Source: Chromatiales bacterium (GTDB taxonomy: Bacteria > Pseudomonadota > Gammaproteobacteria > SZUA-140). From it: a stretch of 32,987 nucleotides of DNA. The translations under genes were made by a program, and so were the position numbers. The stretch lies in assembly GCA_031285245.1 (NCBI GenBank), contig JAITWN010000008.1:1-32987 (forward strand), read 5' to 3'. This document shows, piece after piece, positions 6,927 to 32,987 of the stretch; position 1 is the first letter of the stretch; each line of letters begins with the position of its first letter. The notes under the pieces are model-generated. The model worked only from the letters and a program-made list of their open reading frames with translations. It was not told the DNA's origin and searched no databases.

Positions 6927-8598
<1,672 letters not shown>

Positions 8599-13557: not shown

Positions 13558-13565
13558 AGGATAAA

Positions 13566-13594: not shown

Positions 13595-13680
13595 GTGAGC
13601 GCTATTGTATAACCATGCGGCGTCCCTCCTCTTATATCAAGCCCGCCGTCATGGCGGCTGTCGTCCTTACTTTTCAGGCT

Positions 13681-13694
13681 GGCAATCGATTGCC
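13681..13694. promoter_or_regulatory. perfect 14-bp palindrome GGCAATCGATTGCC (possible operator) in the MMPL leader
   Basis: Read directly from the sequence, 86-99 nt upstream of the MMPL start. No regulator gene is adjacent. Confidence 0.3.
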
Positions 13695-13779
13695 GATATT
13701 CAGGCACGGATCGCGACCTCTACCTAACTGAGCCTTCGGGGCCGAGGATGCGTACGCTCCATGCCCCGGTGGATCGAGG

Positions 13780-16284: not shown

Positions 16285-16295
16285 AGCTGCGGTAC
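16265..16295. terminator. 13-bp perfect hairpin spanning the stop codons of convergent MMPL and argA genes
   Basis: GTACCGCAGCTTC (16265..16277), loop ttcct, GAAGCTGCGGTAC (16283..16295). The MMPL TGA (16282..16284) lies at the loop/stem junction, and the argA stop (16296..16298) abuts the stem. The U-tracts are weak. Confidence 0.45.
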
Positions 16296-17609: not shown

Positions 17610-17717
17610 GGGATGTCTATGCCGAAATGATGACTAGTGTTTACTGGAAAAAGCTTTTAGCGTCGAGAGCTATCCTGCGGATAGAGCGCATATTTCTGAC
17701 CGGAGCGGTCAGTTAAA

Positions 17718-17754
17718 TTGTATCTTGTATACATGTACTAATTATATGTATATT
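17718..17754 (+). promoter_or_regulatory. two overlapping sigma-70-like promoters in an AT-rich palindromic block, facing small ORF 1
   Basis: TTGTAT (17718..17723), 17 nt, ATTATA (17741..17746). Also TTGTAT (17725..17730), 17 nt, GTATAT (17748..17753). The block contains the palindromes TGTATACA and TACATGTA. Confidence 0.35.
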
Positions 17755-17832
17755 AATCTCGCGATAGGTGACGGTGCGTATTTTCAGTAGCAGACGGCCA
17801 TCGATTTCAACCAGGCAATAAGGAGATACCCC

Positions 17833-17916
17833 ATGGAAAACACTCTCTCGATCACGGCGAGCTTGTCTTTTTCAATTCTGGCGATTGTCCTATTGTTCAG
17901 CCATATCATGAGCTGA
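17833..17916 (+). CDS. 27-aa hydrophobic (single-TM) peptide
   Basis: My translation: MENTLSITASLSFSILAIVLLFSHIMS*. A strong SD (AAGGAGA, 17820..17826) sits 6 nt upstream of the ATG, and a hairpin terminator lies about 50 nt downstream. Too short for the ORF track. Confidence 0.45.
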   Translation: MENTLSITASLSFSILAIVLLFSHIMS

Positions 17917-17968
17917 AAAAATTCGGCAAAACAATCGCCTGACATCGATCAGCGCTGTACACCATAGG

Positions 17969-18017
17969 ATTTCTAGGCGGACTAGGTCGGTCTGCCTAGA
18001 AATTCCTTACTTTTTTT
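17969..18017 (+). terminator. rho-independent terminator after small ORF 1
   Basis: A 13-bp stem pairs 17969..17981 with 17991..18003 (one G-U pair) around a 9-nt loop. A T7 run follows at 18011..18017. Confidence 0.55.
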
Positions 18018-18133
18018 GTATTCTTTTTCCCTGAGTGTTCTGCTAAGGTACCGATACTGCGCCGCTGAAGGGCTGTAGGCCGCAGTCGGAATCAACTCAA
18101 GTATTTGATGAATGGCAGACAGGAGGAAGGGGA

Positions 18134-18223
18134 ATGATCGAGCATAAAATTACGGCTTTGCTGGGTGTATGCGCCATCGCAACCGCGGTCGGCCTGTTTT
18201 TCTCGCACCTGGGGGCTGGCTAA
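18134..18223 (+). CDS. 29-aa hydrophobic (single-TM) peptide, paralogue of small ORF 1
   Basis: My translation: MIEHKITALLGVCAIATAVGLFFSHLGAG*. A strong SD (AGGAGGAAGGGGA, 18121..18133) and a terminator lie close by. It shares 'ITA' and 'FSH(I/L)' with the first peptide. Confidence 0.45.
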   Translation: MIEHKITALLGVCAIATAVGLFFSHLGAG

Positions 18224-18259
18224 GGGCCGTACTGCGGAAGCGTTCCTTCCGTCAGAAAT

Positions 18260-18296
18260 AAAAAAGGGGAGAACCCATTCGGTTCTCCCCTTTTTT
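18260..18296. terminator. bidirectional rho-independent terminator (small ORF 2 / secreted protein gene)
   Basis: A6, then GGGGAGAACC (18266..18275), loop cattc, GGTTCTCCCC (18281..18290), then T6. Confidence 0.8.
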
Positions 18297-18307
18297 ATGG
18301 TCTGTAT

Positions 18308-19474
18308 TCAGGGAGTAGGGCGAATGTTGGGATAGCTCCAGGGATTGGGGTTGGCCTGAGTTTCCTCGAAAAAGTTGTGCCAACTGTTCGCGTCGGGCAT
18401 CGCCTGGCCGCCATTGATGTAAGTGTAAGTACCGTTACTTCCGCCGGGACTACTTCCACTTGCGGCAGGGCCGGCAAACTCATCAGTGCTAGGGGTGAAG
18501 GTATATCGGCCTGCGGTGATCACCGAATTTTGAGAGTCGGTATTCATATCAAAGGAAGTTGAAGACGGCCCACCACCCGGAGGACGAAGATTCTGCGGCG
18601 CGCCTGGGCCCAGCAGTTCCATCGTATTAGTGACCACGGAGGCTGTAGCGTCGCTGTCGTATTTATTGCCTGCTGAATTGATATTGACCGTGCTGCGGAA
18701 TTGACCAGGCTGCTCAATGAGGTTGGTGATCGATGGCTTTTCATCGAAGCGGTTTTTCACGAAATCCAAGGTGAGCTCGCCATCTTTCAAGAACTGCTGC
18801 ATCTGCACACGGGCTGGATTAGCGCTCATATTACCGCTGAAACCATTATCGTTGTCGAGCGGATTGTAGGCGTTACTGCCCTGTGGGTTCTCTGTTCCTA
18901 TGCCGGTGCCGCCTGCTCCGCTGCTGGCGGAAACGTTGAGATTAGGATTGATGACGCCCGCACCCCCACCCCCACCAATAGCGTAATCGGCGCTACCCTC
19001 GGTGCAGGTTACTGGGCCACTGCACTGATCTCCTGTGGTGATGGCAAGCGCGTTGCCGTTGCTTGTGATCCGAATATAGACTTCTTGCGCGAAAACGGGT
19101 CCCGAGCTGTTACGCGGGTCGGTCGGGTTGTTCGCGGGGCCCAAGTCACCCATGATCATATGGAAGTATGAGACACCGCCATCTACGACCCTTTCGTATA
19201 TAAAAGGCGTCTGGTTGGGAACGATGATCTGACTCTCTGGGACAGCCGAGCTGCCATGAATGACAGCATCCGTGAGAGTCTGGCTGTTGCCAAACTCATC
19301 GGTATACCCAAAGGTGCGGGGGAACGCGGGAGTCGTGTCAGCAGTCCAATTCAGATTGAATTCCGCATGACTCTGCGCGGCGGGAAATAGCGTCGCCATT
19401 GAAAGCACAACTAACAAGCACAACCAACTTGCTTGTGCTTTTGCGTCCGTGAGTGATTTCAAACGAACGTTCAT
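18308..19474 (-). CDS. secreted Gly/Asn/Ser/Thr/Pro-rich protein of unknown function
   Basis: Track ORF 18308..19537. I start it at Met22 (ATG 19474), which gives the signal peptide MNVRLKSLTDAKAQASWLCLLVVLSMATLFPAAQSHA/EF. The mature protein has a central 'GGGGGAGVINPNLNVSASSGAGGTGIGTENPQGSNAYNPLDNDNGFSGN' region and one CxxxxxxC pair. I recognise no family. Confidence 0.6.
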   Translation of the reverse strand: MNVRLKSLTDAKAQASWLCLLVVLSMATLFPAAQSHAEFNLNWTADTTPAFPRTFGYTDEFGNSQTLTDAVIHGSSAVPESQIIVPNQTPFIYERVVDGGVSYFHMIMGDLGPANNPTDPRNSSGPVFAQEVYIRITSNGNALAITTGDQCSGPVTCTEGSADYAIGGGGGAGVINPNLNVSASSGAGGTGIGTENPQGSNAYNPLDNDNGFSGNMSANPARVQMQQFLKDGELTLDFVKNRFDEKPSITNLIEQPGQFRSTVNINSAGNKYDSDATASVVTNTMELLGPGAPQNLRPPGGGPSSTSFDMNTDSQNSVITAGRYTFTPSTDEFAGPAASGSSPGGSNGTYTYINGGQAMPDANSWHNFFEETQANPNPWSYPNIRPTP

Positions 19475-19481
19475 GGGTTCG

Positions 19482-19511
19482 ATTATAATACAACTATCTC
19501 CGCGCAACCAA
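19482..19511 (-). promoter_or_regulatory. candidate promoter placing the transcription start at or near the ATG of the secreted-protein gene
   Basis: Minus strand reads TTGGTT (19511..19506), 18 nt, TATAAT (19487..19482), 7 nt, then ATG (19474). No SD lies in between. ATTATAAT is itself palindromic. Confidence 0.25.
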
Positions 19512-19628
19512 TCGCCGTCGACGCTGTCCGATGTCATATCGGCCGATGGTTCTCAGGTGACCAACGCCACTCATTTTCGGGGGGAGTTTGCGCATGGCCG
19601 CTCTCGCCCGCCAATCGGGAATGCAGGT

Positions 19629-20894
19629 ATGACGTTCAGAATTATTTTTCCGCTAATCCTTGCTGGAAGTACTCTTGCTCTCAGTGGATGCTTGGAAGCT
19701 ATAAATAACTTGGGAGGAGCGCAGGACGCCACCCTTGCCCGGCCGACTGCTCCAGCATTTCTAAAGTCGCCTGCGACCGAGGGGATCAGCTACCAGTCTG
19801 CGGATGTCACCGGCGAGACTGACTCCTACGGTCAGTTCACTTACCAGGTTTCTCAGGACGTGACTTTCTCAGTAGGTGCCGTGGCCTTGGGCACTATTAC
19901 AAGCACCGTCGCGGCGCGTGGTGTGGTGACGCCGCTGGATCTGGTGGTATCAGATTCTGCAGGACCGACGACAATCACTAACAGCACAGTCCTGAATATC
20001 ACCCGCTTCCTGATGATGCTGGACCAGGACGGTGATCCTAGCAACGGCATCGTGATCTCGCCCGAGGTGCGGGAAGTCGCATCTACGTGGAATCAAGTAG
20101 ATTTCTCAAGCTCGAATTTTGAGGAGCAACTCACCGATATCATCAGCTCAGCCGCTAGTGTCGACGGTACCCCTCATGACTTGCCGGATGCCGCCGCTGC
20201 ACAAGCGCATCTGCGAAATACGCTGACCTGTTTGTATTCAGGCGCTTTTCAAGGACAGATCGGTGGCGATGCCACGGGTTATTTTGCATTTACTGTGAGC
20301 CCTGAGAGCCGATCACTGGGGGGATTCGTGTTTAGTCCCGCGACGGCTGCCGGGCGATTGCGTACGTTGGTTGCAACTGACCAGCTTGATTTTACTCAAG
20401 CACAGCTCTCCTTGGTCGGCTTTGATCTGGATAGTGTGTCTTCATATCAATATACAGTGCGGTATAACGGCCTCAACCAGGTTACCGGTACATGGTTCCC
20501 CAGCAGCACTACTGGTACTGGCCAGGGCGGTACGCCGGGTAATCTGTCCGGTGGGCGTCTCACGCCGGCCACGTTGACGGTGAACTACCGTGCCACGGGG
20601 ACGTTCAACGGTAGTTACGCGGGTGCTTGGGTGCTCGATATACCGCCACTCCCACAGACGGGTACAGTAAGGGTGCTGGGTCGTATGTATACGGTTAATC
20701 TCGATTCTAGTTTGACGCTGAACGGCGAAATAAGTCCGAATGGTAATCTCTCCATCACGGGTGAGGATGGCTCGACGCGCTTCGACGGGAATATCGATTT
20801 GACCACGTTGCATATCATTGGTACTTGGTCAAACGATTTTGCGGACCCGCGGGTTTCGGGAACGTACACCGGCGCGGCTTGCCGCTTGCTTTGA
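19629..20894 (+). CDS. lipoprotein of unknown function (421 aa)
   Basis: Starting at Met61 of track ORF 19449..20894 gives MTFRIIFPLILAGSTLALSG/C, a lipobox (LSGC) with Leu at +2. I recognise no family. The C-terminal half is rich in Gly-aromatic beta-strand motifs. Confidence 0.65.
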   Translation: MTFRIIFPLILAGSTLALSGCLEAINNLGGAQDATLARPTAPAFLKSPATEGISYQSADVTGETDSYGQFTYQVSQDVTFSVGAVALGTITSTVAARGVVTPLDLVVSDSAGPTTITNSTVLNITRFLMMLDQDGDPSNGIVISPEVREVASTWNQVDFSSSNFEEQLTDIISSAASVDGTPHDLPDAAAAQAHLRNTLTCLYSGAFQGQIGGDATGYFAFTVSPESRSLGGFVFSPATAAGRLRTLVATDQLDFTQAQLSLVGFDLDSVSSYQYTVRYNGLNQVTGTWFPSSTTGTGQGGTPGNLSGGRLTPATLTVNYRATGTFNGSYAGAWVLDIPPLPQTGTVRVLGRMYTVNLDSSLTLNGEISPNGNLSITGEDGSTRFDGNIDLTTLHIIGTWSNDFADPRVSGTYTGAACRLL

Positions 20895-20901
20895 TACCGC
20901 T

Positions 20902-22914
20902 ATGCTATCGATATTCAACGGTTTTTTCAGATTTTCTCTCATCGCGCCTTTGGTAATACTGCTCGCGGCGTGCAGCGTCGGCGACGACAGCGCTTATGTT
21001 GGCGGGGGGGACAATTCTCCTGGTCGCCCGGTACCGACCCCCGAAATCGGGGCTATCGGCTACGGTATCAAGCAATTTCGGTTCACTTGGCCGCCGGTAA
21101 CCAACGCTACGTCCTATCGTTTGTGTGAAGACCTTCACGCAGGCTTTGGTTGCGCCCCGCTCGGTTCGGATTTCGGTGCCAATACGTTCAAATATAACCA
21201 TGATCTCTTTTTGCCGAGCCGCCGCAACGCGACTTATATCCTCACCTCTTGCGAGGGTGATACGGGCGATACATGTGCCAGCTCTGCGAGCAAAGCCGTC
21301 GGCCGCAGTCGCGATATCAACCTCAATTTCGCTGTAGGTTATTTCAAGGCGACCAACACGGCGGCGAATCAGCAATTCGGATCTGCCGTCGCTTTGTCGA
21401 CGGACGGCAAAACGTTGGCGGTAGGCGCGCAAGGTGAGAGTGGCGCCGCCAGGGGCGCCTGTGATCCTGCTGATGATGCGTGTAAAAAAGCCCAGGCGAC
21501 AGGTACCCAGATAGAAAACTCCCAGACAGGCGCGGTCTATGTCTATCGCCTGGCTGCTGAGGGTTGGACGCCGGTAGCGTATATAAAAGCACCCAATGCC
21601 GATCCTAGGGATCAGTTCGGTACTTCCGTCGCTTTGTCGGGTGATGGAACGGTGCTTGCTGTTAGCGCACCTAATGAGGAGAGTAACGCGACGGTGGTGT
21701 GTGACCCTAAGGATGAGCAGTGCAAAGCGGCGATGGATGACAACTCCATCTGCTCTGCCAGCAAAGTCGGCTGTAACGCGGGTGCGGGGGCTGCTTATGT
21801 CTTTGCGCTTACAGATAAAGGCTGGGTGCCGCAAGCCTATGTCAAAGCGCCCAATACGGCGAGAAATGACAAATTCGGTCAGGCGATTGCGCTGTCGCAG
21901 GACGGTCAGATTCTACTGGTTGGCGCGCCGCGATCCCAAAATCCAGATCCTAATGCCCCATCTGTAGTAAGTGGAGGGCGGCAGCACGGCGCAGTTCATA
22001 TCTATGCCCACGAAAATGCAGGTTGGGCTTGGCAGCAATCCATTTATGGTGGAGGCCAGCAGTTTGGTTATGCGCTCGCAGTGAATGCCGGTGCAGATGT
22101 TCTTGCCATCGGTGCGCCCGCTGGCCCGCCAGCACCAGCGGTGGATGCTGGCGCGGTTTATATAGCCCGCAGGGGGGCGACGCCGCAAGATAAATGGAAA
22201 CTAACAAACGAACGCTTCATCCTTCAACCTAATGATGCTAGTCCTAGTTCTGGCTGCTTGGATACTCCCGTGAGTAGTTTGAGTAGTTGTTTTGGTTTTG
22301 CACTTGCGCTTTCAGCGGATGGCAATCGTTTGGCGATCGGAGCGCCAACGGAGGCGAGCAAGGCAACGGGTATCACAACAGTTCCCGCGCTGGGTACCAA
22401 CGACCAAGTGAACGCCTTGGCGCCTAATAGCGGAGCCGTTTATGTGCTCTCTTATTGCGTGGCACAAAATAATTGGTGTCCTGGTTACACTTTTATAAAA
22501 CCTAGTCCCCCCAGTTTTATGGTTATTGGGGGAGCCGATCGTTTTGGTTCTGTGGTCTCGCTTTCAGGCGATGGTACGACATTGGCGGTTGGCGCCTATC
22601 AAGACGGTACGCTGATGGCTGGTATCGATGGGCCGGAACCAGGACCGTCTGACGACCCCGGCGATAGTGTGCAAAGCGGCGCAGCCTATGTTTTCGCGCG
22701 CCCGCCCAATAGCGAGAGCTGGAGTCAGTCAGCCTTCGTCAAGGCGCCGAACATGACAAAAGAAGCCCAGTTCGGTTGGTCGGTGGCGATGGCGCGCGAT
22801 GGACAGACCATGGCGGTAGGAGCGTTTTTTGAAAATGGGTCTGACACTGGAGTAGTCAGTTCTGCGCTAAGCGAGGATAAAGTGGGTGGGGCCGGAGCGG
22901 TATATCTCTACTAA
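20902..22914 (+). CDS. FG-GAP repeat lipoprotein (FN3-like domain + 7-bladed beta-propeller)
   Basis: Starting at Met29 of the track ORF (ATG 20902, 7 nt after the upstream stop) gives MLSIFNGFFRFSLIAPLVILLAA/C, a lipobox with Ser at +2. Seven repeats follow the pattern (Q/K/R)FG..(V/L)ALS.DG..LAVGAP .... GA(V/A)Y(V/I)(Y/F). Confidence 0.8.
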   Translation: MLSIFNGFFRFSLIAPLVILLAACSVGDDSAYVGGGDNSPGRPVPTPEIGAIGYGIKQFRFTWPPVTNATSYRLCEDLHAGFGCAPLGSDFGANTFKYNHDLFLPSRRNATYILTSCEGDTGDTCASSASKAVGRSRDINLNFAVGYFKATNTAANQQFGSAVALSTDGKTLAVGAQGESGAARGACDPADDACKKAQATGTQIENSQTGAVYVYRLAAEGWTPVAYIKAPNADPRDQFGTSVALSGDGTVLAVSAPNEESNATVVCDPKDEQCKAAMDDNSICSASKVGCNAGAGAAYVFALTDKGWVPQAYVKAPNTARNDKFGQAIALSQDGQILLVGAPRSQNPDPNAPSVVSGGRQHGAVHIYAHENAGWAWQQSIYGGGQQFGYALAVNAGADVLAIGAPAGPPAPAVDAGAVYIARRGATPQDKWKLTNERFILQPNDASPSSGCLDTPVSSLSSCFGFALALSADGNRLAIGAPTEASKATGITTVPALGTNDQVNALAPNSGAVYVLSYCVAQNNWCPGYTFIKPSPPSFMVIGGADRFGSVVSLSGDGTTLAVGAYQDGTLMAGIDGPEPGPSDDPGDSVQSGAAYVFARPPNSESWSQSAFVKAPNMTKEAQFGWSVAMARDGQTMAVGAFFENGSDTGVVSSALSEDKVGGAGAVYLY

Positions 22915-23016
22915 ATGCTTTGAAATTTGAGTAGATAGAGGTGACCGGCCTCTAGCTGTTGTGGGTACATCAAGTTACACTGCCGGCTTGGGGGGAGTAT
23001 CGGGGGATGTTGCCGA

Positions 23017-23349
23017 ATGCGTATCTATGTTTTTGCGATGACCTTGGTGTGTGCTTCCTGCGCGACTACCACTCAGATCACGTTGCGTCACCCCACCAAA
23101 CAGCTTGATTCACCTGAGTATCAGGAAGATCAGGGTGTTTGTCGTACCTATGCGAATTCTGCTGCACCGATGCAAATGACCCCCGGCCACGGCCCACAGC
23201 GTGATCTGCAGAGTTGGTCCTTTTATTTTTACCGTTGCATGCACGACAAGGGTTGGGAAGTGGTGGATCAGGATGGCAACTCTGTCAGTCCCACACCGCA
23301 CGTAGCTGGGACACAAGTCCAGAGTAGTGATGCGATTCTGCCGCCTTAG
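23017..23349 (+). CDS. small exported protein, probable lipoprotein (110 aa)
   Basis: MRIYVFAMTLVCASC.. is a hydrophobic leader with Cys12/Cys15 but a non-canonical lipobox. A GGGGGA motif lies 9 nt upstream. A competing antisense ORF (23110..23376) has no such signals. Confidence 0.45.
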   Translation: MRIYVFAMTLVCASCATTTQITLRHPTKQLDSPEYQEDQGVCRTYANSAAPMQMTPGHGPQRDLQSWSFYFYRCMHDKGWEVVDQDGNSVSPTPHVAGTQVQSSDAILPP

Positions 23350-23532
23350 CTTTTTGTTCGTCTCCTTCCATCGCATCTACGTAAACCCACTATTGGGTTC
23401 GTGCGTTTTCGCGAGTGTTGTGCAAGCATTGAACCTATCGTCATCCGGCATTGCATTGATAAATATCAGTCGATGTCCATGTGCAAAGGGCTGGGCCTAG
23501 TCCCGCTCGACCTTCGTCAAAAGGAGGGGCAA

Positions 23533-25365
23533 GTGAAATTTCTCGGTTCCATCTTCACGTTGAATAAGGCTGGCCGGTTGGCCGCGCTGTGTTTCATGGC
23601 TTTGTTAGCAGCGTGCTCTAACAGTGTTCCTCCTGGTACTCCTGGTAGTAATGGCGGCGGCGGCGGCGGCGGCGGAGATAGCGGTGGCGGTTCTAATATT
23701 GCTGTGACTGGTGTTTCAGTGAACAAACCATCGCTCAGTCTGGCGGTGGGCAGCAGCGATACGATTACAGCAACGGTTTTTCCAGACACTGCTACCAACA
23801 AGAAGGTGACATGGAAGAGCAGCGCGCCCGAGGTTGCCACTGTAAATGGCTCGGGTAGGGTCACCGCTGTGGCCTTGGGCGATGCCATCATCACCGTCAC
23901 TACAGACGATGGACAAAAGACCATCTCTATTCCGGTGGCGGTGTCTTCAGGCATTACCTCCGTCACACCTCTTTCGGCGTCGCACGGTGCTATCGTCACT
24001 ATTAAAGGTGTGGGTTTTGGTGGGACGCCGGAAGAAAATAGCGTGGCGTTCGGCAGCGTCCCCGTGAAGGTAACCAATGTGGAGGTGATCCCTGAGACGG
24101 CGGAAACCTCCAGCTCTATGGTGCTCACGGTCGAAGTGCCCAAAAATCTCGCTGCCTCCGGCAATGTGCGAGTGACGGTGGGGAAGCAAACGGCGGTTTC
24201 TACGGCGACTTTCACGTATGTGCCGATTTATGTCGTTAGTACGTTGGCGGGTAGCAATACCGCGAGCTTTGCCGATGGCGTGGGCACGGCTGCGATATTC
24301 AATCACCCCGAGGGGGTTGCTGTGGATGCCACGGGCAAGGTGTTGTATGTGGCGGATACGGGCAACCACCGCATTCGCAGCATCAATATTGACGACACCG
24401 TAGACAGTGGCGATGCGAAGGTTAAGCCTTTCGGCATGGTCGAGACTTTTGCGGGTAGTGGAGAAGCGGACTTTTTCGATGATATTGCTATAGCGGCGAA
24501 ATTTCGTTCTCCTGCCGGCGTTACTGTGGATACTGCGGGCAATGTGTATGTGGCGGATACCGGCAACCACCGCATTCGCAAGATCGACAAGGACCGTGTA
24601 GTTTCGACCTTCAAGGGGGACGGAACAGCAGGCTTTGTTGATAGCGTCGCCGACCTCGTCAGTGGCGGTGTGACGCCGGGGAGATTTAACTCTCCTCGTG
24701 GCATCGCTGTGATCCCTGAGAAAGATGCCGATGGCAATGTGTCGAATGTTTGGTATGTGGCAGATACTGGCAACCATAGTATTCGCCGCATCACCATCAA
24801 CGGTGGCGTGGCGACCTTCGCGGGTAGTGAGGGGAAAGCAGGCTTTCTTGACGATACCAGTAAAAAAGCACAATTCGACTCTCCTGCCGGTATCGCCGTG
24901 GACGCCGCATACAATGTGTATGTGGCGGATAGGGGCAACAACCGCATTCGCCGCGTCACACCTCCCACCAAAGTTACTCTTGATGATAATACGGTGGTTA
25001 CCCTTGATGGCACGGTAAAGACCTTCGCGGGTGAAGAAGTAGAAGGGAGTGGGGTTAACTCTCCTTACGGCGTCGCTGTGGACGCTAAATACAATGTCTA
25101 TATTGCGGATACCAACAACAACCGTATCCGCAAAGATATCCTCACTAACGCCGACGGCCCAAGTGGTCTGACAACCACTGTCTCTACTTTAGCGGGTACT
25201 GGAGCATCGACACCCCTGATCGATGACACCACCCCTTTATCTGCGACTTTCAATGCTCCTCATGGCGTTGCCTTTTATAGTGTTACCGTGAGCGGTGTGC
25301 CTATGACGTATGTGTACATAGCGGATACCGACAACAACCGTATTCGCAGAATCGCGCCGGAGTAG
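23533..25365 (+). CDS. lipoprotein with Gly-rich tether, Big_2 domain, IPT/TIG domain and 6-bladed NHL beta-propeller
   Basis: I place the start at GTG 23533, 5 nt after AAGGAGG. This gives VKFLGSIFTLNKAGRLAALCFMALLAA/CSNS, a lipobox with Ser at +2. The Big_2 domain is 'VTGVSVNKPSLSLAVGSSDTITATVFP...KVTWKSS.PEVATV...G.VTAVALGDAIITV'. The IPT domain is 'ITSVTPLSASHGAIVTIKGVGFG'. Six repeats end in (V/I)AD(T/R)(G/N/D)N(H/N)(R/S)IR(R/K/S)(I/V/D). Confidence 0.8.
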   Translation: MKFLGSIFTLNKAGRLAALCFMALLAACSNSVPPGTPGSNGGGGGGGGDSGGGSNIAVTGVSVNKPSLSLAVGSSDTITATVFPDTATNKKVTWKSSAPEVATVNGSGRVTAVALGDAIITVTTDDGQKTISIPVAVSSGITSVTPLSASHGAIVTIKGVGFGGTPEENSVAFGSVPVKVTNVEVIPETAETSSSMVLTVEVPKNLAASGNVRVTVGKQTAVSTATFTYVPIYVVSTLAGSNTASFADGVGTAAIFNHPEGVAVDATGKVLYVADTGNHRIRSINIDDTVDSGDAKVKPFGMVETFAGSGEADFFDDIAIAAKFRSPAGVTVDTAGNVYVADTGNHRIRKIDKDRVVSTFKGDGTAGFVDSVADLVSGGVTPGRFNSPRGIAVIPEKDADGNVSNVWYVADTGNHSIRRITINGGVATFAGSEGKAGFLDDTSKKAQFDSPAGIAVDAAYNVYVADRGNNRIRRVTPPTKVTLDDNTVVTLDGTVKTFAGEEVEGSGVNSPYGVAVDAKYNVYIADTNNNRIRKDILTNADGPSGLTTTVSTLAGTGASTPLIDDTTPLSATFNAPHGVAFYSVTVSGVPMTYVYIADTDNNRIRRIAPE

Positions 25366-25461
25366 GCTCAGGACAGGAAGCTCGAAAACCGCAGCAACGA
25401 TGGGCGGGCAAGTACAGCTCAGTGTTTGGATTAGGATCGTTGCGAGCTATCAGGAATCAAG

Positions 25462-25504
25462 GAGCGTCATCACCAGTGCGGGGTGATGGCGCTCTTTGCT
25501 TTTG
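25462..25504 (+). terminator. rho-independent terminator after the NHL lipoprotein gene (in the convergent intergenic region)
   Basis: GAGCGTCATCACC (25462..25474), loop agtgcgg, GGTGATGGCGCTC (25482..25494; one G-U pair), then TTTGCTTTTGTT. Confidence 0.7.
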
Positions 25505-25584
25505 TTGGGTAATACCAATGCGCCGCGGAATAATGGCAACTATAAGTACTGTCTCGAAAGCGCCATGCTCGTTTATGAGCACAC

Positions 25585-28500
25585 CTAGAAACTGAACGAA
25601 ACACCTGCCGACGTCGAGATGTTGCTGTAATCACCCAGTGAGGAGCTTTGCAACCCGATGGCGGTTGCCGAGTCTTCGGGCGACAGGATGAATCCTGTTG
25701 GCAGGTTCGATTCGTTAAATCGATAAGACATATTAGCGAACAGGCGCAAGCTGGTTGACAGATAATAGTTTATTCCGAGAGACATATTCTGCATGAAATT
25801 CACTCGATGCCGGGTATAGAGCGTTAGGGAGTCCGGATAGGTGTATTGCAGGTATGAGGTGTTGTAGCCAGCGTTTGCGCTCAGACCTGGGCGCAGGAAA
25901 CGGATCAACTGTGCTGATACGCTGTGACTGGTATAGGCGAAATCGCTGCCGACGCTTGTGGTGTTGTTATTGATGCCGTAGTTGTAGCCGAGCGTCCAGC
26001 GCCAACCGGTGCCGAGCTGCTGATTGACGGTGCCGCCGATGGTGTAATTATTGGCATCAAAGATCGGCGAGGTTGCCGATCGCATCTGGTTTGCGCTCAG
26101 GGTGAAATCCCACAATCCAGAACCGACCTGCCCGTCTCCAAGCCAGCTCAGCCATTTTGGCATGGTGAATGAGCCCGATATGGTTCCGCTCACTTCGTCT
26201 GTGGTGCTTTGCTTGATTTGGAGTAGCAGCAATTCGCCGCTGTTGTGGGTGTAGTTCAGAGAGTAATCGAGTCCTTTCCAATACGCTGAAACGAAGGGGT
26301 TATAACCCAGAGAAAGCATATCGAATTGCCCGCGATGGAAGGTCTGATAGCCTCCAGTCAAGCTGATACCGAGGAAAATCGGTCGACGATACAGTTTGCG
26401 CCGATATGTCACGCTAGTGTTCAATGACGAACGGAATTCTTCGCTGGGATTGTCGCGGCTGAGATTGAAGTTACTGTCGTAGCCAGATTGGTAGCCCACA
26501 CTATAGGAAAAGCCGTCGAGGCGTTGAGAGAGGGCTGCCAAACGTTCCCGCGCGGTCACTTCGAGACCGCTAGGTAAAGTGCGCGCCAGTGCGGTTCGGT
26601 ACGCATCGAGTGCGTCTTCCTCACGACGCATCTGTTCATACAGCATGCCGAGACTTAAGTGTGCCGGACCATGCTGGGGTACGATGCGGATCACTTCCTC
26701 ATACTCATGCGCGGCTTCTACGTATGCGCCGCGGGCGGCGAGCAGCATGGCCAGATAGAAGTGGGCGGTATAATCGTCCGGATTGCGTTCGGCGATAGCA
26801 CGGAAGCGGCGCTCAGCTTCTTCGTTGCTCCCTTCAGTGGCCGCACGCCGCGCCGCGGCGGACTCCAGCTTGTTGTTCAGTGCTGCTATCAGCAGGGGGG
26901 GCTCCGTCAGCAATTCAAGCGCGCGCTGATAAGCACCTTCAGCCAATTTAAATTCCGACAGCATGTCATAAATTTCGCCGAGCTTTGCCTGTGTCATGCC
27001 GTCTTCAGGCTTCAGACGCAGCATGTTTTCGTATGCTTCGCGCAAGTCCGTTGGGCGGTTGAGGGTTTGGGCAGCGGCGGCAAGTCTCGACCATGCCTCA
27101 TAATCGTCAGAATTGTCGATCAGTGGCGCACGTCGATCCTGAATCAACTTGTCCTGGGTTTGTTGCCGTAATTGCGCGCCCGCTTCTCCCGCATAGAGAG
27201 TAGCGAGCAGTTGTTGCGCGTCCTTGGTGGCTGGGCTGTTACCGCTGGCGATACGCGTCTCTTCCAGCTCGCGCGTACCGTCTTCCTTGCGCTCTAATTC
27301 GAGATAAAGCGCGGCTAGCCTGAAATGGACATCGGGACTATCGGGGCGCTGGGCGGCCATTTTCTTTAGTACGTCCAGAGCCTGATCTTTCTGATCGAGA
27401 CCGTGATAAGCAACGGCGAGATTGATGGCGGCGCTGATATCATTGGGATCAATGGAGAGCAGCTCTTGAAACAGGTCTCGTGCTTGAGCGAAATTACCTT
27501 CCTTGATAGCAGTCGTTCCCTGCAGCGAGAGGATGCGGCTGCGCAGACTAGGGGCCATATCGCTATCCGGTGGTAACATCTCAAGCAGTTTGTGATACTG
27601 AGCGATAGCCTGATCGGTTTGATCAGTGTGCTCGTAAATCTCGACGAGAAAGGAACGTAATTTGACGTTTTCTGGTTGCTGTGCAATTAACGCTTCCAGC
27701 AGATGCTGAGCGCCCGCAGTGTTGTTATCGCTGATGTAACCACCGAGGATTTCACGCAATAGCACATCGTCTCCGGCATGCTGCTGCAGCAAGCGCATGA
27801 ATTGCTGTTGTGCGAGCTCTGGATTCTGGCGTGCTTCGATGCGTGGCGACAGTACGCGTATGCGATCGTTTACCCCGCCTATTTCGGGCGCGCCGGGAGG
27901 AGCTGTGGCGATGACTAGGCGGTATTCACGCAGTGCTGCCGCGGGATCGCCGAAACTATCGAGGCCGCGGGCGAGCACCAGGCGTACGCGGTAGTTGTCT
28001 GGCACTAGCGCTGCGCTGCGCGCAAGCGCGCGCAGCCCCGCTTCGGGGTTTTTGAGCTGAAGCTGGAGGTTGCCGATGAAGTACAGTGCTTCGGCGTGAC
28101 TAGGCTCCAGCGTCTGTGCGGCCTCCGCTGCGCGTAGTGCTCCCTGCGAATCACCGCGTGCCATGCGTGCTCTCGCTTCATTGAGCAGACTAGGCACATC
28201 CTTTAGGGCTGCAATGGTTGGGTCGTCCACGGGCTCGGTTTTCCCCGAAATTCCCATGGCGGTGCCTTTTGACAGTCGCTCGATCTCTTTCTGTGCTTCG
28301 ATTGCTTCGGATGCGCCTGGTGGTGCCATTGCCACTACGGTGCGTAATTGTTGCAGCGCTTCCTGTGGGGTGGCAAAACGTTCATAGGCGCGGGCTAGCG
28401 CTAGGCGCAGGCGATAATTGTTCGGCGATAGTTGTAGGCTTCTCTCTAGCGCCTGTAAGCCCGGCTCCATGCGATCGAGCTGAAGATTGACGTTGCCGAT

Positions 28501-29139
28501 GAGAAATAGCAGTTCCGCATCGTCGGGCTGCTTGGCGCGCGCGAGCTCGAAGGCTTCCAGTGCGCCTTCAGGATTATTGCGCGTAAGGCGTTGTTTGCCT
28601 GCGGCGATCAGAACCTCGGTATCGGTATCTGGACTCAGCGCTATGGTGCCGACTTCATCAAGCGTTCGACCTACTTCCAGCTCAGTGATACGCTTTCTGG
28701 CGTCCTCGGCTTCTGGCGCTCCTGCGGGTGCATCTTGGATAACACGGCGATATTCACGCAGCGCGTCCTCTCGGGCTCCCGCCTTTTCCTGAGCTTTCGC
28801 TAATTGCAGGCGCACGCGATAACGTTCCGGCGCCAATTCGACGCTGCGGGTAAGCGCGGTAATACCTGCTTGAAGATGCTCAGCCTGGATGTAAAGAAAG
28901 CCAGCGAAGAAGAGCGCCTCGGCATTATCAGGGTCCTGCGCAATGGCTTCCTCGAAAGCGCGCAAGGCTTGCGCGGAGTTGCCTTCCGCGATGTGACGGC
29001 GGCCTTCAGCCACTAGCGCGGCACTCTCATTCGCTGATTGTGCGTAGATCGGCGTCGACATCCAGGCGCCGCCGAGCATGAGCAGTAAGCTCAGCGCCGC
29101 TAGGTGTTTTGCTCGTTTCGCACGTCCCGTGATGCTCAT
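25585..29139 (-). CDS. 1184-aa outer-membrane protein: signal peptide + about 830 aa of TPR repeats + 310-aa C-terminal beta-barrel
   Basis: Signal peptide ..LLLMLGGAWMSTPIYA/QS. TPR-like helical repeats run throughout residues 40-860. Residues 875-1184 show alternating hydrophobic/aromatic beta-strand patterning ('FSYSVGYQSGYDSNFN', 'WRWTLGYNYG', 'SLGINYYLS', 'RLFANMSYRF'). The protein ends in the OMP beta-signal '..STSAGVSFSF'. Confidence 0.8.
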   Translation of the reverse strand: MSITGRAKRAKHLAALSLLLMLGGAWMSTPIYAQSANESAALVAEGRRHIAEGNSAQALRAFEEAIAQDPDNAEALFFAGFLYIQAEHLQAGITALTRSVELAPERYRVRLQLAKAQEKAGAREDALREYRRVIQDAPAGAPEAEDARKRITELEVGRTLDEVGTIALSPDTDTEVLIAAGKQRLTRNNPEGALEAFELARAKQPDDAELLFLIGNVNLQLDRMEPGLQALERSLQLSPNNYRLRLALARAYERFATPQEALQQLRTVVAMAPPGASEAIEAQKEIERLSKGTAMGISGKTEPVDDPTIAALKDVPSLLNEARARMARGDSQGALRAAEAAQTLEPSHAEALYFIGNLQLQLKNPEAGLRALARSAALVPDNYRVRLVLARGLDSFGDPAAALREYRLVIATAPPGAPEIGGVNDRIRVLSPRIEARQNPELAQQQFMRLLQQHAGDDVLLREILGGYISDNNTAGAQHLLEALIAQQPENVKLRSFLVEIYEHTDQTDQAIAQYHKLLEMLPPDSDMAPSLRSRILSLQGTTAIKEGNFAQARDLFQELLSIDPNDISAAINLAVAYHGLDQKDQALDVLKKMAAQRPDSPDVHFRLAALYLELERKEDGTRELEETRIASGNSPATKDAQQLLATLYAGEAGAQLRQQTQDKLIQDRRAPLIDNSDDYEAWSRLAAAAQTLNRPTDLREAYENMLRLKPEDGMTQAKLGEIYDMLSEFKLAEGAYQRALELLTEPPLLIAALNNKLESAAARRAATEGSNEEAERRFRAIAERNPDDYTAHFYLAMLLAARGAYVEAAHEYEEVIRIVPQHGPAHLSLGMLYEQMRREEDALDAYRTALARTLPSGLEVTARERLAALSQRLDGFSYSVGYQSGYDSNFNLSRDNPSEEFRSSLNTSVTYRRKLYRRPIFLGISLTGGYQTFHRGQFDMLSLGYNPFVSAYWKGLDYSLNYTHNSGELLLLQIKQSTTDEVSGTISGSFTMPKWLSWLGDGQVGSGLWDFTLSANQMRSATSPIFDANNYTIGGTVNQQLGTGWRWTLGYNYGINNNTTSVGSDFAYTSHSVSAQLIRFLRPGLSANAGYNTSYLQYTYPDSLTLYTRHRVNFMQNMSLGINYYLSTSLRLFANMSYRFNESNLPTGFILSPEDSATAIGLQSSSLGDYSNISTSAGVSFSF

Positions 29140-29154
29140 GGCATTTTTGCTGCG

Positions 29155-30051: not shown

Positions 30052-30078
30052 CAGTTCGGCCTTTCGCTGCGAGCAGCG

Positions 30079-31608
30079 TCAGAACATATATTTGAAATTG
30101 ATATAGACTCGATCATTGTCATGGAAGTTACCGACGAACTGTGAACGCTGATCAAGCACCGTTGGCTGTCCAATCTGATTGGAAAGGACGCCGAACTGGG
30201 ATGACGCGCCGGAAAAGAAATTTGCCCCCAGGGTGACATTAAAGTGGTCGGTGAGACGAAAAGTCCACGCTGGATTTAGATACGTCTCGCGCTGGTTGAC
30301 AAAACGAATCGCGAGTATTTCAAACAGGATGCCGCTTTGTGCGAAATCCTTGCGTATGAATAAATTGATGCTGTTGTCGAAGCGGCTCTGCACCATGGCG
30401 ATGTCGTAGTCGAGAATGATCCATTGCGTGATGCCGGGGGCAATGTCGAAACCCGCCCAGTTAAATTCCAAGCCAAGCCCCCAACGGATATGGTCACTCT
30501 GGACTTCGCCGAGGTTGTCAAGAAAGCCGTCTCGATTACGATCGACATCGATGACCGCGAAATACTTCCCGGTGACATAAGTGCCTTCGCCTTTCACGAT
30601 CATGTCCCCCACCTGGCGGCTGAAAGTACCGCCGTACATGTTCATGCGCGTGTACGTGGCTAGAAACTTTGGGTTATCTGCCTCGTTCTGATTCAGCAGC
30701 AAGCTCCGGAATACGGTCGGAAAATCATCCCAAGTGTAGAAGTAACTCAGCGTTACATCGGTGTTCCAGATGTAGGTACTGTAACGCAGCCCGATCTCTG
30801 AATTCTTGAGCGTAAAGGAGTCTGGCTCGGTGGTGCCGGGCACGCGCTGCAACAGCTCCCACTCTGAGCCTGGTGGCGCTGGTTTGTGGAAGTGCAGATC
30901 AGGTATCCATAGCAACTGCCAGGTATCGTCACCGCGAAAATACTCGAACTTGGCGGTCCACAGCGGGATACGGTAATCAATCAGGTCAGGCATGATCAGT
31001 TCGCGAAAGTCGACCGGATTGACTTCGTCCACGATGCGTACGCCTTCGAGCACACCCCAGACTACGAACTGACGTCCAACGCGAATATCCAGATTGTCGA
31101 ATAGGAAATCGACATAGAGTTCGCGTACCTCCATGCCCATGGAGTCGCGATCCTTGCCCAGATTGAACAGAAAGGCGAGCGGTTGGTCAGAGTTCCGTGC
31201 GAGGCGCGCGGCGATGGTGTCGTAGTCGAACAGGTCATAGGCCATGTCGTACCAGGCCACACCGGTGAAATTGCCTTTGATGCTCGGGCTGAAATCGTAA
31301 GTCGCATTCAGATAGCCAACGTTGCGCATTTTGGTGATTGAGCGCGGTTGTTTGATTCGAAAAGCCGTCTCATTCTTGAGATAGCCACTCCATTGGATGG
31401 AGTTGGAATCAGACTGGGGCGACGAGCTCGGAAATGCGAGTGGCTCATCGCCGCTAGCGGATTCTGGAAACAGGGGATCGTCGGTTAGGCTGGGCCTATT
31501 GGTGAGCAGCGGAGAGGAGTTCAAACTCTGGCCCCAGACTTGAGCTGATCCGCCAACGAGGAGCGCGCTTATCAGTGCCACATGCGGCAACACATTCCTG
31601 ATCAGCAA
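30079..31608 (-). CDS. 509-aa outer-membrane beta-barrel protein (DUF1302 / alginate-export-like)
   Basis: TTG start at 31608, 4 nt after AAGAGGGGGA, followed by a signal peptide and a Ser/Pro-rich linker. 'WSGYLKNETAFRI' and 'VRELYVDFLFDNLDIRVGRQFVVWG..EG.RIVDEVNPVD' recall DUF1302 / AlgE-type barrels. It ends '..YINFKYMF'. The family call is from memory of motifs only. Confidence 0.6.
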   Translation of the reverse strand: MLIRNVLPHVALISALLVGGSAQVWGQSLNSSPLLTNRPSLTDDPLFPESASGDEPLAFPSSSPQSDSNSIQWSGYLKNETAFRIKQPRSITKMRNVGYLNATYDFSPSIKGNFTGVAWYDMAYDLFDYDTIAARLARNSDQPLAFLFNLGKDRDSMGMEVRELYVDFLFDNLDIRVGRQFVVWGVLEGVRIVDEVNPVDFRELIMPDLIDYRIPLWTAKFEYFRGDDTWQLLWIPDLHFHKPAPPGSEWELLQRVPGTTEPDSFTLKNSEIGLRYSTYIWNTDVTLSYFYTWDDFPTVFRSLLLNQNEADNPKFLATYTRMNMYGGTFSRQVGDMIVKGEGTYVTGKYFAVIDVDRNRDGFLDNLGEVQSDHIRWGLGLEFNWAGFDIAPGITQWIILDYDIAMVQSRFDNSINLFIRKDFAQSGILFEILAIRFVNQRETYLNPAWTFRLTDHFNVTLGANFFSGASSQFGVLSNQIGQPTVLDQRSQFVGNFHDNDRVYINFKYMF

Positions 31609-31644
31609 ATGTCCCCCTCTTACCGGCGGTCAAGGCCACTGGGC

Positions 31645-31680
31645 CGTTCCCCGGGCACATCCAGATGTGCCCGGGGAACG
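31645..31680 (-). other. intercistronic 16-bp perfect GC-rich stem-loop between the LolA-like and barrel genes
   Basis: CGTTCCCCGGGCACAT (31645..31660), loop ccag, ATGTGCCCGGGGAACG (31665..31680). No U-tract on the transcribed (minus) strand. Confidence 0.7.
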
Positions 31681-31702
31681 TTACGTTGTTGCCAACGCTG
31701 GC

Positions 31703-32515
31703 TTATCGGCCGCCGCGCGTCAGATTGCGTTCAGAGAACACGTCGTCACTCAGCCCAATGTTCACCTTGGCTTCGCTGACTTCGAAGATGGAGCGGTGAT
31801 TGGTTTGCACATTGTGCACGTTGACCTCGCTCCACAGCCAAGCGTCATCAATACGCTGCCATTTGATGGACTGCTGTTTCAGAAGTTCACCTTTCGGATC
31901 GTAGTAGTCAATTTGCTGTTTGTGGCAGTCGTCCCAGTTGTTGGTCATCACGTACTGGGAAACAACATGGCTATAAAGCTGCAATGTACCCGGACGCGGA
32001 ACGCTCTTGATGTTGATGATTTTTTGCCCGTCGTGTTCTTCCGCACCCAGGACGGTATGATCGTCCTCATCGAGACCGCGCGGGCTGATATCGGCATAGG
32101 TCAGATCTGAGCCAAGGAAGCTGTCACCGGGATCACGCACCGAGACTCGGCGGGTTTTCTTGAGTGCCGGCAGATAGATCCACTGCTCAGCGTTTTTGCC
32201 GGTATAGGCCCAGCGCATGAACGCAGAACCTTGGGCATCCGGCGGGTACTCCGTGAATAGCACCATCTTTTCGGTGATACCATCACGGCCTTTGAAGTCT
32301 TTCCAGTAACGCCGATAGATATTGACCTTGTCATTGGCATCGCGGTCGCGCAGGGTGATTTTCAGCCGCGTCTGTTGATCTTCACCGGGATAGCGTGCGT
32401 CGCATTTCTGGACGATGTCACGCGCGGTGATCTGCGGCGCTTCCTGTGCCGTGCTGATCGTCGGCGCCAGCCCTGCCGACAAGGCAACTGCCAGTATCAC
32501 GCCTGTTTTACGCAT
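31703..32515 (-). CDS. periplasmic LolA-like 'outer membrane lipoprotein-sorting' family protein
   Basis: I place the start at ATG 32515, 8 nt after AAGGAGA (Met7 of the track ORF). Signal peptide MRKTGVILAVALSAGLAPTISTA/QE with no Cys. 'MVLFTEYPPD..GSAFMRW...EQWIYLPALKKTRRVS....DSFLGSDLTYADI' matches the LolA_like family usually found beside MMPL/RND or ABC exporters. Confidence 0.75.
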   Translation of the reverse strand: MRKTGVILAVALSAGLAPTISTAQEAPQITARDIVQKCDARYPGEDQQTRLKITLRDRDANDKVNIYRRYWKDFKGRDGITEKMVLFTEYPPDAQGSAFMRWAYTGKNAEQWIYLPALKKTRRVSVRDPGDSFLGSDLTYADISPRGLDEDDHTVLGAEEHDGQKIINIKSVPRPGTLQLYSHVVSQYVMTNNWDDCHKQQIDYYDPKGELLKQQSIKWQRIDDAWLWSEVNVHNVQTNHRSIFEVSEAKVNIGLSDDVFSERNLTRGGR

Positions 32516-32796
32516 AAAACTGATCTCCTTCACGAAACAGCATTAGTTTTAGGGCTATTTTAAAGTGCCGATTTGGTGGGGTATCGGCGCGACCTTCTTG
32601 CCAATCTGGTCGCTGCGGCGGGTAGCGGTAAAGCTCAAGGTATCCCGGCAAGCGGCCGAAATTATAGCAAAGGGATTTTGTAGGCGCATCCAGCATAGCG
32701 ATGCCCTAATTTTAAGAGGCGACCCCTGGCTGAATTTCGCCTGGTCGCAGTGACTGGTCCGGCATCAACGATCCGGACTCTGCCTGGAGAGAGACC

Positions 32797-32987
32797 ATGA
32801 TGAAAAAACGTATAGAAAGATTTTGTGGTTTGGCTTTCGGCTCTGCTGCTTTTTTGGCTGCAGGTGCTGCACTGGCAGTTCCGCCGACAGGTTTTGGCGG
32901 TTATGGTAATTTTTCGACGAGCGCCGGCGTCGTCACGGTGGCGTGCCCGGCGGGTTACACGTGCGCGAATCTGATCGCGGCCGGCAC
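32797..32987 (+). CDS. secreted protein, 5' end only (runs off the right edge)
   Basis: My translation from ATG 32797, downstream of GGAGAGAG: MMKKRIERFCGLAFGSAAFLAAGAALA/VPPTGFGGYGNFSTSAGVVTVACPAGYTCANLIAAG.. It has a clear signal peptide and is divergent from the LolA-like operon. Confidence 0.5.
   Translation, partial: MMKKRIERFCGLAFGSAAFLAAGAALAVPPTGFGGYGNFSTSAGVVTVACPAGYTCANLIAAG

Follow-up and report, generated by a model that had tools for sequence, protein, structure and literature searches.

A candidate five-component trans-envelope transporter in uncultured Gammaproteobacteria, with its MMPL pump gene apparently displaced from the operon

The contig analysed here (JAITWN010000008.1, 32,987 nt, from a Chromatiales bacterium; this whole stretch is hereafter the window) carries, to the right of argA, a minus-strand operon encoding a periplasmic LolA-fold carrier, a DUF1302-family outer-membrane barrel and two further predicted outer-membrane barrels, one of them preceded by a long tetratricopeptide repeat (TPR) arm. 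Comparison with related loci shows that a gene for an MMPL-type transporter that belongs to the RND (resistance-nodulation-division) superfamily, standing on the other side of argA, is the orthologue of the fifth gene of this operon. It is close to certain that the five genes belong to one module, which is a variant of the DUF1302/LolA-superfamily/HAE3-RND cassette of the AmeABCD type. We consider it reasonably likely that the core works as a five-component trans-envelope transporter, in which the RND pump would drive the relay of a hydrophobic or amphiphilic small molecule to the outer membrane.

In the described cassette, a DUF1302 protein and a DUF1329 protein of the LolA superfamily are encoded together with a COG4447 BNR propeller protein and a COG1033/HAE3 RND pump. 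Cofitness of these genes is seen in Shewanella, Kangiella and Pseudomonas, and in P. stutzeri the cassette is split into two pieces; examples are AmeABCD of Castellaniella defragrans, Sama_1588-1591, and PP_0765-0766 with PP_2018-2019 of P. putida. An earlier interpretation of the window, made from its letters alone (the sequence-only reading), had held that its composition matched no known system, a claim that does not survive the comparison, since the combination of LolA-superfamily protein, DUF1302 barrel and HAE3 RND pump is that of this cofit cassette.

A conserved operon and its separated pump gene

The genes on which the argument rests are the following.

31703-32515, minus strand: LolA-fold carrier of the periplasm (soluble, 270 aa), encoded first in the operon; signal peptidase I (SPase-I) signal peptide, no lipobox
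30079-31608, minus strand: DUF1302-family outer-membrane barrel, 509 aa; SPase-I signal peptide; PF06980
29155-30051, minus strand: predicted outer-membrane beta-barrel of an uncurated family, 298 aa; SPase-I signal peptide; assigned from AlphaFold2 (AF2) and Foldseek
25585-29139, minus strand: TPR-barrel protein, 1184 aa; SPase-I signal peptide, ~850 aa of periplasmic TPR and a predicted C-terminal barrel (25588-26592)
13780-16284, plus strand: HAE3/MMPL-type RND inner-membrane transporter, 834 aa; Pfam MMPL 5.6e-35, with Patched and Sterol-sensing domains
16296-17609, minus strand: argA, to the right of the MMPL gene

Gene neighbourhoods were read for the related loci and for further contigs, and every window protein was mapped onto them by tblastn. 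Distribution counts refer to 14 distinct loci, the window included; the pairs L003/L010, L004/L015, L005/L006 and L008/L014 were merged, L002 and L013 come from one metagenome-assembled genome (MAG), and L001 is a contig identical to the window.

The gene order LolA_like - DUF1302 - MMPL - ~300 aa - TPR-barrel, on one strand, is present in 10 of the 14 loci (L004/L015, L005/L006, L008/L014, L009, L012, L013 and L016-L019), and in these relatives the end of the MMPL reading frame runs 1-11 nt into that of the ~300-aa protein. The same operon appears without a pump gene in four loci, namely the window, L003/L010, L011 and L007. The MMPL protein encoded elsewhere in the window scores 121 bits against the Pfam MMPL profile (gathering score 20.5); its best NCBIfam match is TIGR00921 HAE3 (5e-63), followed by HpnN (3e-24), both under the equivalog cut-offs, and its nearest solved RND relatives are the lipid/siderophore exporters MmpL4/5, HpnN and MmpL3. 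Over its full length it is 50-52% identical to the in-operon pumps of L004, L005, L008, L009, L012, L013 and L016-L019, and the remaining components of the same loci have diverged from the window to a comparable degree (carrier 50-57%, DUF1302 54-64%, 298-aa barrel 43-50%, barrel domain of the TPR protein 40-45% identity). In L004 the complete operon lies directly beside argA-accC-accB-aroQ, a chromosomal site shared with the window. This matching divergence, the in-operon position in ten loci and the L004 site identify the MMPL gene as the orthologous fifth member of the operon, and the gene orders indicate that in the window it has moved across argA and become inverted, out of the operon. 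In a neighbour-joining tree of concatenated carrier, DUF1302 and 298-aa sequences the four pump-less loci form one clade, which points to a single relocation event. The sequence-only reading had named this gene as the only nearby candidate for an inner-membrane energy source, and in the light of the related loci it proves to be the true partner of the operon.

A gap of 222 bp lies upstream of the relocated gene and contains a promoter-like site at 13566-13594 (region 13558-16295). Since its end lies 11 nt from the convergent argA stop and it has an upstream gap of its own, its transcription should be independent of the operon to which it belongs.

Carrier, DUF1302 barrel and two further barrels

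The carrier is a confident member of the Pfam family LolA_like/TP_0789-like (PF17131, 6.5e-42, 143.7 bits). It also scores 27.1 bits against DUF1329 (PF07044, cut-off 23.1), with only 88 of the 368 profile positions covered, and it is ~180 aa shorter than DUF1329 proteins. Its best match among PDB sequences, and closest solved homologue, is 9TP6, the LolA3 protein of P. gingivalis (5e-34); 4Z48 and 3BK5 match as well. All 13 related loci that extend to this gene begin the operon with an orthologue of the carrier (50-83% identity). The 509-aa protein matches PF06980 at 3.1e-17 (63.2 bits against a cut-off of 23.2), over positions 93-376 of the 541 in the profile; orthologues 54-78% identical occur in all loci, PF06980 being precomputed on every one of them, and a PDB sequence search with the 509-aa protein returned no relative. 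The literature models the DUF1302 family as an 18-strand barrel that docks DUF1329, the modelled complex reaching an interface predicted template modelling (TM) score (ipTM) of 0.84. One clade differs in gene content around these two genes. A 135-146-aa protein with a ribbon-helix-helix and a zinc ribbon, which may be a dedicated regulator, is encoded between the LolA-like and DUF1302 genes (L005:5517-5957, L008:3574-3981), and a PF00891 O-methyltransferase gene (L005:3364-4374), whose products are 81-96% identical between loci, lies immediately upstream; both genes are absent from the window.

The 298-aa protein is a predicted outer-membrane beta-barrel. Its AF2 model has a mean predicted local distance difference test score (pLDDT) of 88.9 and very long strands, and its Foldseek matches are all outer-membrane proteins (FadL, OmpT/Pla, OmpA, OmpW), all with low TM scores. 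Pfam and NCBIfam gave no match to the protein, and PDB sequence and profile searches of the family gave nothing useful. The family counts 34 database homologues, all from metagenomes or gammaproteobacterial MAGs, and four of 32 members weakly match OMP_b-brl. It is marked by the invariant motifs YRED and FLSGD.R.FR and, more generally, by an unusual number of invariant polar residues at positions 169-193 (H169, Y176-R-E-D179, F184-L-S-G187..R190.F-R193), which the model places at the end of a hairpin of great length. Taken together, these features suggest a binding or catalytic site, as in OmpT, PagP or OMPLA, in preference to a plain pore.

The 1184-aa protein matches TPR families up to 1.5e-49 in Pfam. 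Its C-terminal 335 aa are modelled with 14 strands (AF2 pLDDT 71.6) and find only porin-type folds by Foldseek (porins, CymA, OmpG), so that a 14-strand outer-membrane barrel is predicted for this domain; like the 298-aa protein it ends in an aromatic residue, as is typical of outer-membrane proteins. PDB sequence and profile searches with the barrel domain gave nothing useful. The domain is 40-71% identical across all related loci, and its homologues amount to 170 cluster representatives among 1.84e9 proteins, nearly all of which form the C-terminal part of TPR proteins 880-2900 aa long. The N-terminal arm is modular: the window protein contains three tandem modules of ~130 aa, 41-48% identical to each other, and the same module is present once in L005, L008, L009 and L016-L019, three times in L003 and L011 as in the window, four times in L004 and L012, and five times in L007. 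This copy number of one to five accounts for TPR-barrel protein lengths of 911-1562 aa, and judged by its length the arm can probably span much of the periplasm. Overall, the earlier proposal that a LolA-like carrier and three outer-membrane barrels form an envelope system is upheld by Pfam, by the AF2 and Foldseek comparisons and by their conservation in the related loci.

famB, a constant neighbour of the operon

Divergent from the operon, the window ends within a gene of a family that we call famB.

32797-32987, plus strand: 5' part of the gene for a secreted Gly/Thr/Ala-rich protein (famB, ~350 aa); SPase-I signal peptide

The remainder of the window copy is P0048. Members of the family are 290-360 aa long, begin with a signal peptide and share two conserved Cys as well as a motif, GPWxW..FG..P, at the C-terminus. 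By tblastn, the DNA upstream of the LolA-like gene holds one to four copies in tandem in L003 (202-3945), L004 (1-4012), L005 (2216-3085), L008/L014, L009 and L016-L019, and counting the window famB is thus found in 10 of the 10 distinct loci with upstream DNA. No Pfam match, at relaxed thresholds included, and no PDB match was obtained for the family, and only 17 relatives were retrieved in a word-indexed database search.

The lipoprotein block facing the operon

Between argA and the operon the window encodes further exported proteins.

18308-19474, minus strand: secreted Gly/Asn-rich protein, 388 aa; signal peptide ending ...AQSHA/EF (slash, cleavage site)
19629-20894, plus strand: lipoprotein of an uncurated family, 421 aa; lipobox LSGC, Leu at +2
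20899-22914, plus strand: FG-GAP seven-blade lipoprotein, 671 aa; FG-GAP_2 1e-34, lipobox LAAC, Ser at +2, Gly/Pro-rich tether
23017-23349, plus strand: probable lipoprotein, 110 aa; CASC, an atypical lipobox; no Pfam match
23533-25365, plus strand: Big_2-TIG-NHL six-blade lipoprotein; lipobox LAAC, Ser at +2, poly-Gly tether
25458-25498, strand not assigned: strong hairpin (17-bp stem, T-run after it) in the intergenic gap where the two blocks converge

The sequence-only reading had listed ten exported proteins, with no cytoplasmic enzyme, to the right of argA, had noted Leu or Ser at +2 of the three large lipoproteins (Leu in the 421-aa protein, Ser in the FG-GAP and NHL proteins) and had described tethers after the lipidated cysteine of two of them (Gly/Pro-rich in FG-GAP, poly-Gly in NHL). 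All of this agrees with our results, every open reading frame (ORF) lying where it had been placed and all ten products carrying export signals. Its layout of two convergent blocks is confirmed as well, and the hairpin in the gap between them probably ends transcription of the plus-strand block and keeps the blocks apart; the 388-aa gene is a separate unit divergent from the 421-aa gene and is part of neither block.

The view that the propeller lipoproteins are the cargo of the operon finds no backing in their distribution. The 421-aa lipoprotein is the most widespread of the group: homologues 30-54% identical adjoin the TPR-barrel gene in L003, L011, L007, L012 and L002, and in the last two the gene is co-directional with the TPR-barrel gene and lies just downstream of it. 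This pairing is limited to a single sub-clade. The family has no Pfam match, relaxed thresholds on its homologues included, and the sole PDB/NCBIfam lead is a weak AcfD/SslE-like stretch at the N-terminus (E about 0.01). Homologues of the 388-aa protein are confined to L003 (49%), L011 (49%) and L007 (34%); a relaxed-threshold Pfam search on them returned nothing, a DUF5885 match in the window protein was treated as spurious, being under threshold and absent from the homologues, and hhalign gave a probability of 19% for a relationship between this family and famB. The FG-GAP protein, in which seven FG..A(L/V)S.DG motifs were counted by eye and whose gene has the lowest G+C content at third codon positions (GC3) in the window, 0.53, has homologues only in L003 (46%) and L011 (39%), the two closest relatives, whose operon proteins are 66-83% identical to those of the window. 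The same holds for the 110-aa protein (69% and 52%, respectively), and in these two loci its gene is the immediate neighbour of the TPR-barrel gene. The NHL protein, for which the best start is a GTG at 23533 preceded by the ribosome-binding site AAGGAAGGA, combines Big_2 (1.5e-16), TIG (1.7e-10) and NHL (6e-35) domains with six ADTGNHRIR motifs, recovered also as six DNA repeats in the repeat search; tblastn found it in no related locus, so that it is limited to the window and the identical contig L001.

The 388-aa gene therefore occurs in 4 of the 14 loci (the window, L003, L011 and L007) and the 421-aa gene in 6 (the same four plus L012 and L002), while 8 loci contain none of the genes for the 388-aa, 421-aa, FG-GAP, 110-aa and NHL proteins. 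By this gene content, the FG-GAP and 110-aa lipoproteins are lineage-specific additions. Mapped on the tree, the patchy distribution argues for a stepwise accretion of genes between argA and the operon and against a conserved two-operon system; the order of arrival would have been the 421-aa lipoprotein, the 388-aa secreted protein, the FG-GAP and small lipoproteins and, last, the NHL lipoprotein. Elsewhere, then, the minus-strand operon is conserved and the facing lipoprotein block is not, contrary to what joint synteny of the two blocks would require.

Remainder of the window and occurrence of the system

The left half of the window contains housekeeping genes: a family 9 glycosyltransferase (GT9) of the heptosyltransferase type, a class IV aminotransferase (ilvE-like), glnE, a PilT-like ATPase, groES/groEL, aroQ, accB and accC. 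GroEL is encoded in two pieces (6927-8553, minus strand): the ORF 8137-8553 reads as GroEL for ~106 codons and then runs out of frame, and the remainder lies in a 459-aa ORF at 6927-8306, with groES (8599-8889) intact. The break points to a frameshift near 8230-8310, due either to an assembly error or to a pseudogene.

Upstream of argA, a 698-bp AT-richer gap holds two small hydrophobic ORFs on the plus strand, 17833-17916 (27 aa, MENTLSITASLSFSILAIVLLFSHIMS) and 18134-18223 (29 aa, MIEHKITALLGVCAIATAVGLFFSHLGAG). Both have a strong ribosome-binding site and are followed by a strong hairpin (17967-18005 and 18258-18298, respectively). Homologues of both peptides occur beside argA in L003, L004 and L011, which suggests that they are real small membrane proteins.

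The switch in gene content at 17.6 kb that had been proposed earlier is weak in compositional terms. GC3 is 0.60-0.67 in the operon and MMPL genes, like that of the housekeeping genes, and 0.53-0.60 in the lipoprotein block; a compositional island boundary was rejected accordingly, only the lipoprotein block being modestly lower. Pfam, Rfam and the repeat search revealed neither tRNA nor integrase nor cytoplasmic enzyme in the region, Rfam had no match on the whole window, and the repeat search, which recovered only the NHL blade repeats and the terminator hairpins, showed neither direct nor inverted repeats at the flanks and no sign of a mobile element.

The window is of metagenome origin, and an identical 6.3-kb contig is present in Logan run SRR14710889. 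A scan of 185,579 species genomes yielded only 10 loci, labelled Gammaproteobacteria or 'uncultured Chromatiales', and the related loci come from uncultured Gammaproteobacteria throughout.

Proposed mechanism and alternative explanations

The composition of the module is best read, with moderate confidence, as an outward relay. The HAE3/MMPL pump would take its substrate from the inner membrane, powered by the proton-motive force, and hand it to the soluble LolA-fold carrier, which in turn would bring it to an outer-membrane assembly made up of the DUF1302 barrel, the 298-aa barrel and the TPR-barrel protein, with the ~850-aa modular TPR arm providing a scaffold, or a platform for docking, in the periplasm. 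Which components touch, which way transport runs and what is carried are points that we infer, and the cargo would most likely be a lipid-like envelope constituent moved outward. The scheme draws support from the operon structure, from the barrel folds of the two extra proteins and from ties between the component families: cofitness of the cassette genes in several bacteria, the monoterpene phenotype of AmeABCD, the modelled DUF1302-DUF1329 complex, the MMPL-LolA-like fusion of Thalassolituus and the kinship of the pump with lipid/siderophore exporters.

Several observations weigh against such a relay. Genes for the synthesis of a substrate are not conserved next to the operon; the carrier falls into PF17131 and is not a full DUF1329 protein; and the classical fourth component, the COG4447 propeller, is absent, none of the 14 loci, the window among them, having a gene for a BNR/Ycf48-like propeller of this type (FG-GAP and NHL are propeller families distinct from COG4447 and lineage-specific). 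The function of the parent cassette is itself disputed, envelope-component export, efflux, ester hydrolysis and uptake having all been put forward. A simple lipid pump does not explain two extra barrels, up to five TPR modules and an ever-present famB. Finally, the position of the MMPL gene was not located in L003, L011 and L007, and a metagenome scan with the MMPL protein for its context in close relatives yielded only one 1.2-kb fragment.

The same components could instead work inward, capturing poorly soluble hydrophobic nutrients such as long-chain alkanes, waxes, fatty esters or terpenes at the outer membrane and carrying them across the periplasm, with famB and the 388-aa protein as extracellular binders. 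In Thalassolituus, TOL_3187, a fusion of MMPL and LolA-like domains, is induced on C28 alkane, the fusion and a neighbouring porin being induced 42-fold or exclusively on this substrate; P. putida mutants in the DUF1302/DUF1329 and BNR/RND genes are defective on Tween 20 and butyl stearate, which are fatty esters; and FadL is among the best Foldseek matches of the 298-aa barrel, even if at low TM scores. The characterised RND pumps, however, carry their substrates out of the inner membrane, none of the 14 neighbourhoods contains genes of catabolism (alkane hydroxylase, beta-oxidation, esterase) and the operon is surrounded by housekeeping genes. We regard uptake as fairly unlikely, though not negligible. 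Others among the possible readings make proteins the cargo. The broadest of them, an RND-powered and LolA-fold-chaperoned assembly of proteins at the surface, in which famB and, in some lineages, the 421-aa and 388-aa proteins would pass through, or be placed on, a three-barrel outer-membrane complex organised by the expandable TPR scaffold, seems to us unlikely; if true, it would be a previously unrecognised secretion or surface-display pathway. A narrower version, in which the cassette exports or assembles famB, perhaps with the 388-aa protein, into a surface layer or fibre and the barrels are its conduit or anchor, would account for the one to four tandem famB genes in every locus with upstream DNA, for the signal peptide and the conserved C-terminal aromatic motif of all famB proteins, and for three barrels and a long TPR scaffold that exceed the apparent needs of a lipid pump. 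Yet transport of folded proteins is not known for any HAE-type RND pump, classical DUF1302/LolA-like/RND cassettes have no famB-like genes, famB has been assigned no fold or family and adjacency alone does not show dependence, all of which makes this version improbable.

The display of the 421-aa, FG-GAP and NHL lipoproteins by a Slam-like TPR-barrel translocon with a LolA-like lipoprotein chaperone, the logic to which the sequence-only reading had appealed, is quite unlikely as well. In architecture the protein equals Slam, with a periplasmic TPR region ahead of a barrel of 14 predicted strands; TPR_Slam is matched with 40.1 bits (cut-off 35.2), the gene of the 421-aa family adjoins the TPR-barrel gene in 6 of the 14 loci, co-directionally in L012 and L002, and two of the lipoproteins have Gly/Pro tethers. 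But generic TPR families score far higher than TPR_Slam, and the barrel fails the PF04575 test: the window domain does not match this family even at E <= 10, only one of ten orthologues gives a match, which stays under the threshold (E 0.0067, 16 bits against a cut-off of 22), and ten remote barrel homologues found with HMMER carry DUF2860, BBP2_2, DUF3187 or OMP_b-brl and in no case SlipAM. Sequence thus gives no support for placing the protein in the Slam/DUF560 family. Furthermore, NHL occurs in no other locus, FG-GAP only in the two closest relatives, and eight loci have no adjacent lipoprotein; the 421-aa family is without similarity to TbpB, fHbp or HpuA-type domains in Pfam and among PDB sequences; and the conserved motor is an RND lipid pump and not LolCDE, the nearest LolA3 protein showing weak or no LolB binding. 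The 421-aa lipoprotein itself, whose gene stands beside the TPR-barrel gene in six loci, may still have a Slam-like role. By contrast, the fallback that the TPR-barrel protein is an exopolysaccharide porin of the PgaA/BcsC/PelB/AlgK-AlgE type, with its synthases outside the window, is effectively refuted, and the candidates PgaA, BcsC and Pel were rejected. The TPR and C-terminal barrel do reproduce the PgaA/BcsC architecture, the TPR region gives weak NCBIfam matches to PgaA (28.7 bits) and BcsC (34.5 bits), and PelBC is among the low-TM Foldseek matches; these scores are nevertheless far under the cut-offs (366.65 and 858 bits), none of the 14 loci has a glycosyltransferase or synthase gene within 10 kb, and the partners conserved with the protein are instead an RND pump and a carrier of the LolA fold.

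The module matters in a wider context, since DUF1302/LolA-like/HAE3-RND cassettes are widespread in Proteobacteria and have strong fitness phenotypes, but are poorly understood. The variant described here adds two obligatory barrels, one with a TPR arm of one to five units, and a constant secreted family, and so offers fresh handles on the way in which hydrophobic cargo, independently of Lol, Lpt and Mla, could pass through the periplasm and the outer membrane. The case illustrates, too, how adjacency in a single window can mislead, the partner MMPL gene lying 9 kb off across a housekeeping gene and most of the facing lipoprotein genes being recent insertions. The practical impact is limited for now, given that the system is confined to uncultured Gammaproteobacteria and to few species genomes.

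Comparison with known systems

The AmeABCD-type cassette is the closest described system. In both, a DUF1302 barrel, a periplasmic LolA-superfamily protein and a COG1033/HAE3 pump are encoded together (for the window system, in its relatives), and the two-piece chromosomal split of the window has its counterpart in P. stutzeri. The function of the cassette is tied to hydrophobic compounds, deletion of AmeABCD lowering the monoterpene tolerance of Castellaniella. The window system differs in its short PF17131 carrier of 270 aa, where the cassette has a DUF1329 protein of ~450 aa, in a divergent DUF1302 barrel (63 bits, partial coverage), in the obligatory presence of the 298-aa barrel and the TPR-barrel protein in place of the usual BNR propeller, and in the secreted famB gene that always accompanies the operon.

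Likenesses to other systems are more partial. With Slam/type XI secretion the window system shares a periplasmic TPR region followed by a predicted 14-strand barrel and, in some loci, an adjacent lipoprotein gene; its TPR region, however, is 5-10 times longer, the TPR-barrel gene is always embedded in an RND/LolA-like/DUF1302 operon, and the adjacent lipoprotein is absent from most loci and carries no TbpB-like domain according to Pfam and PDB sequences. From the Lol pathway (LolCDE-LolA-LolB) it takes only the LolA fold of the carrier, and Lol-type sorting, as had been suggested earlier, is not borne out: the loci conserve neither an ABC (ATP-binding cassette) transporter like LolCDE nor a lipoprotein like LolB and have an RND pump in that place, and LolA3 of P. 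gingivalis, which binds LolB weakly or not at all, lacks the hallmark arginine of LolA and leucine of LolB. The coupling of an HAE/MMPL RND pump to a LolA-fold carrier, in place of the Lol ABC transporter, is shared with HpnN, the LolA2/LolB2 flexirubin loci and TOL_3187. HpnN, the hopanoid transporter, works without partner proteins. In comparison with these pairs, the window system has no biosynthetic cluster, and its outer-membrane side consists of three dedicated barrels.

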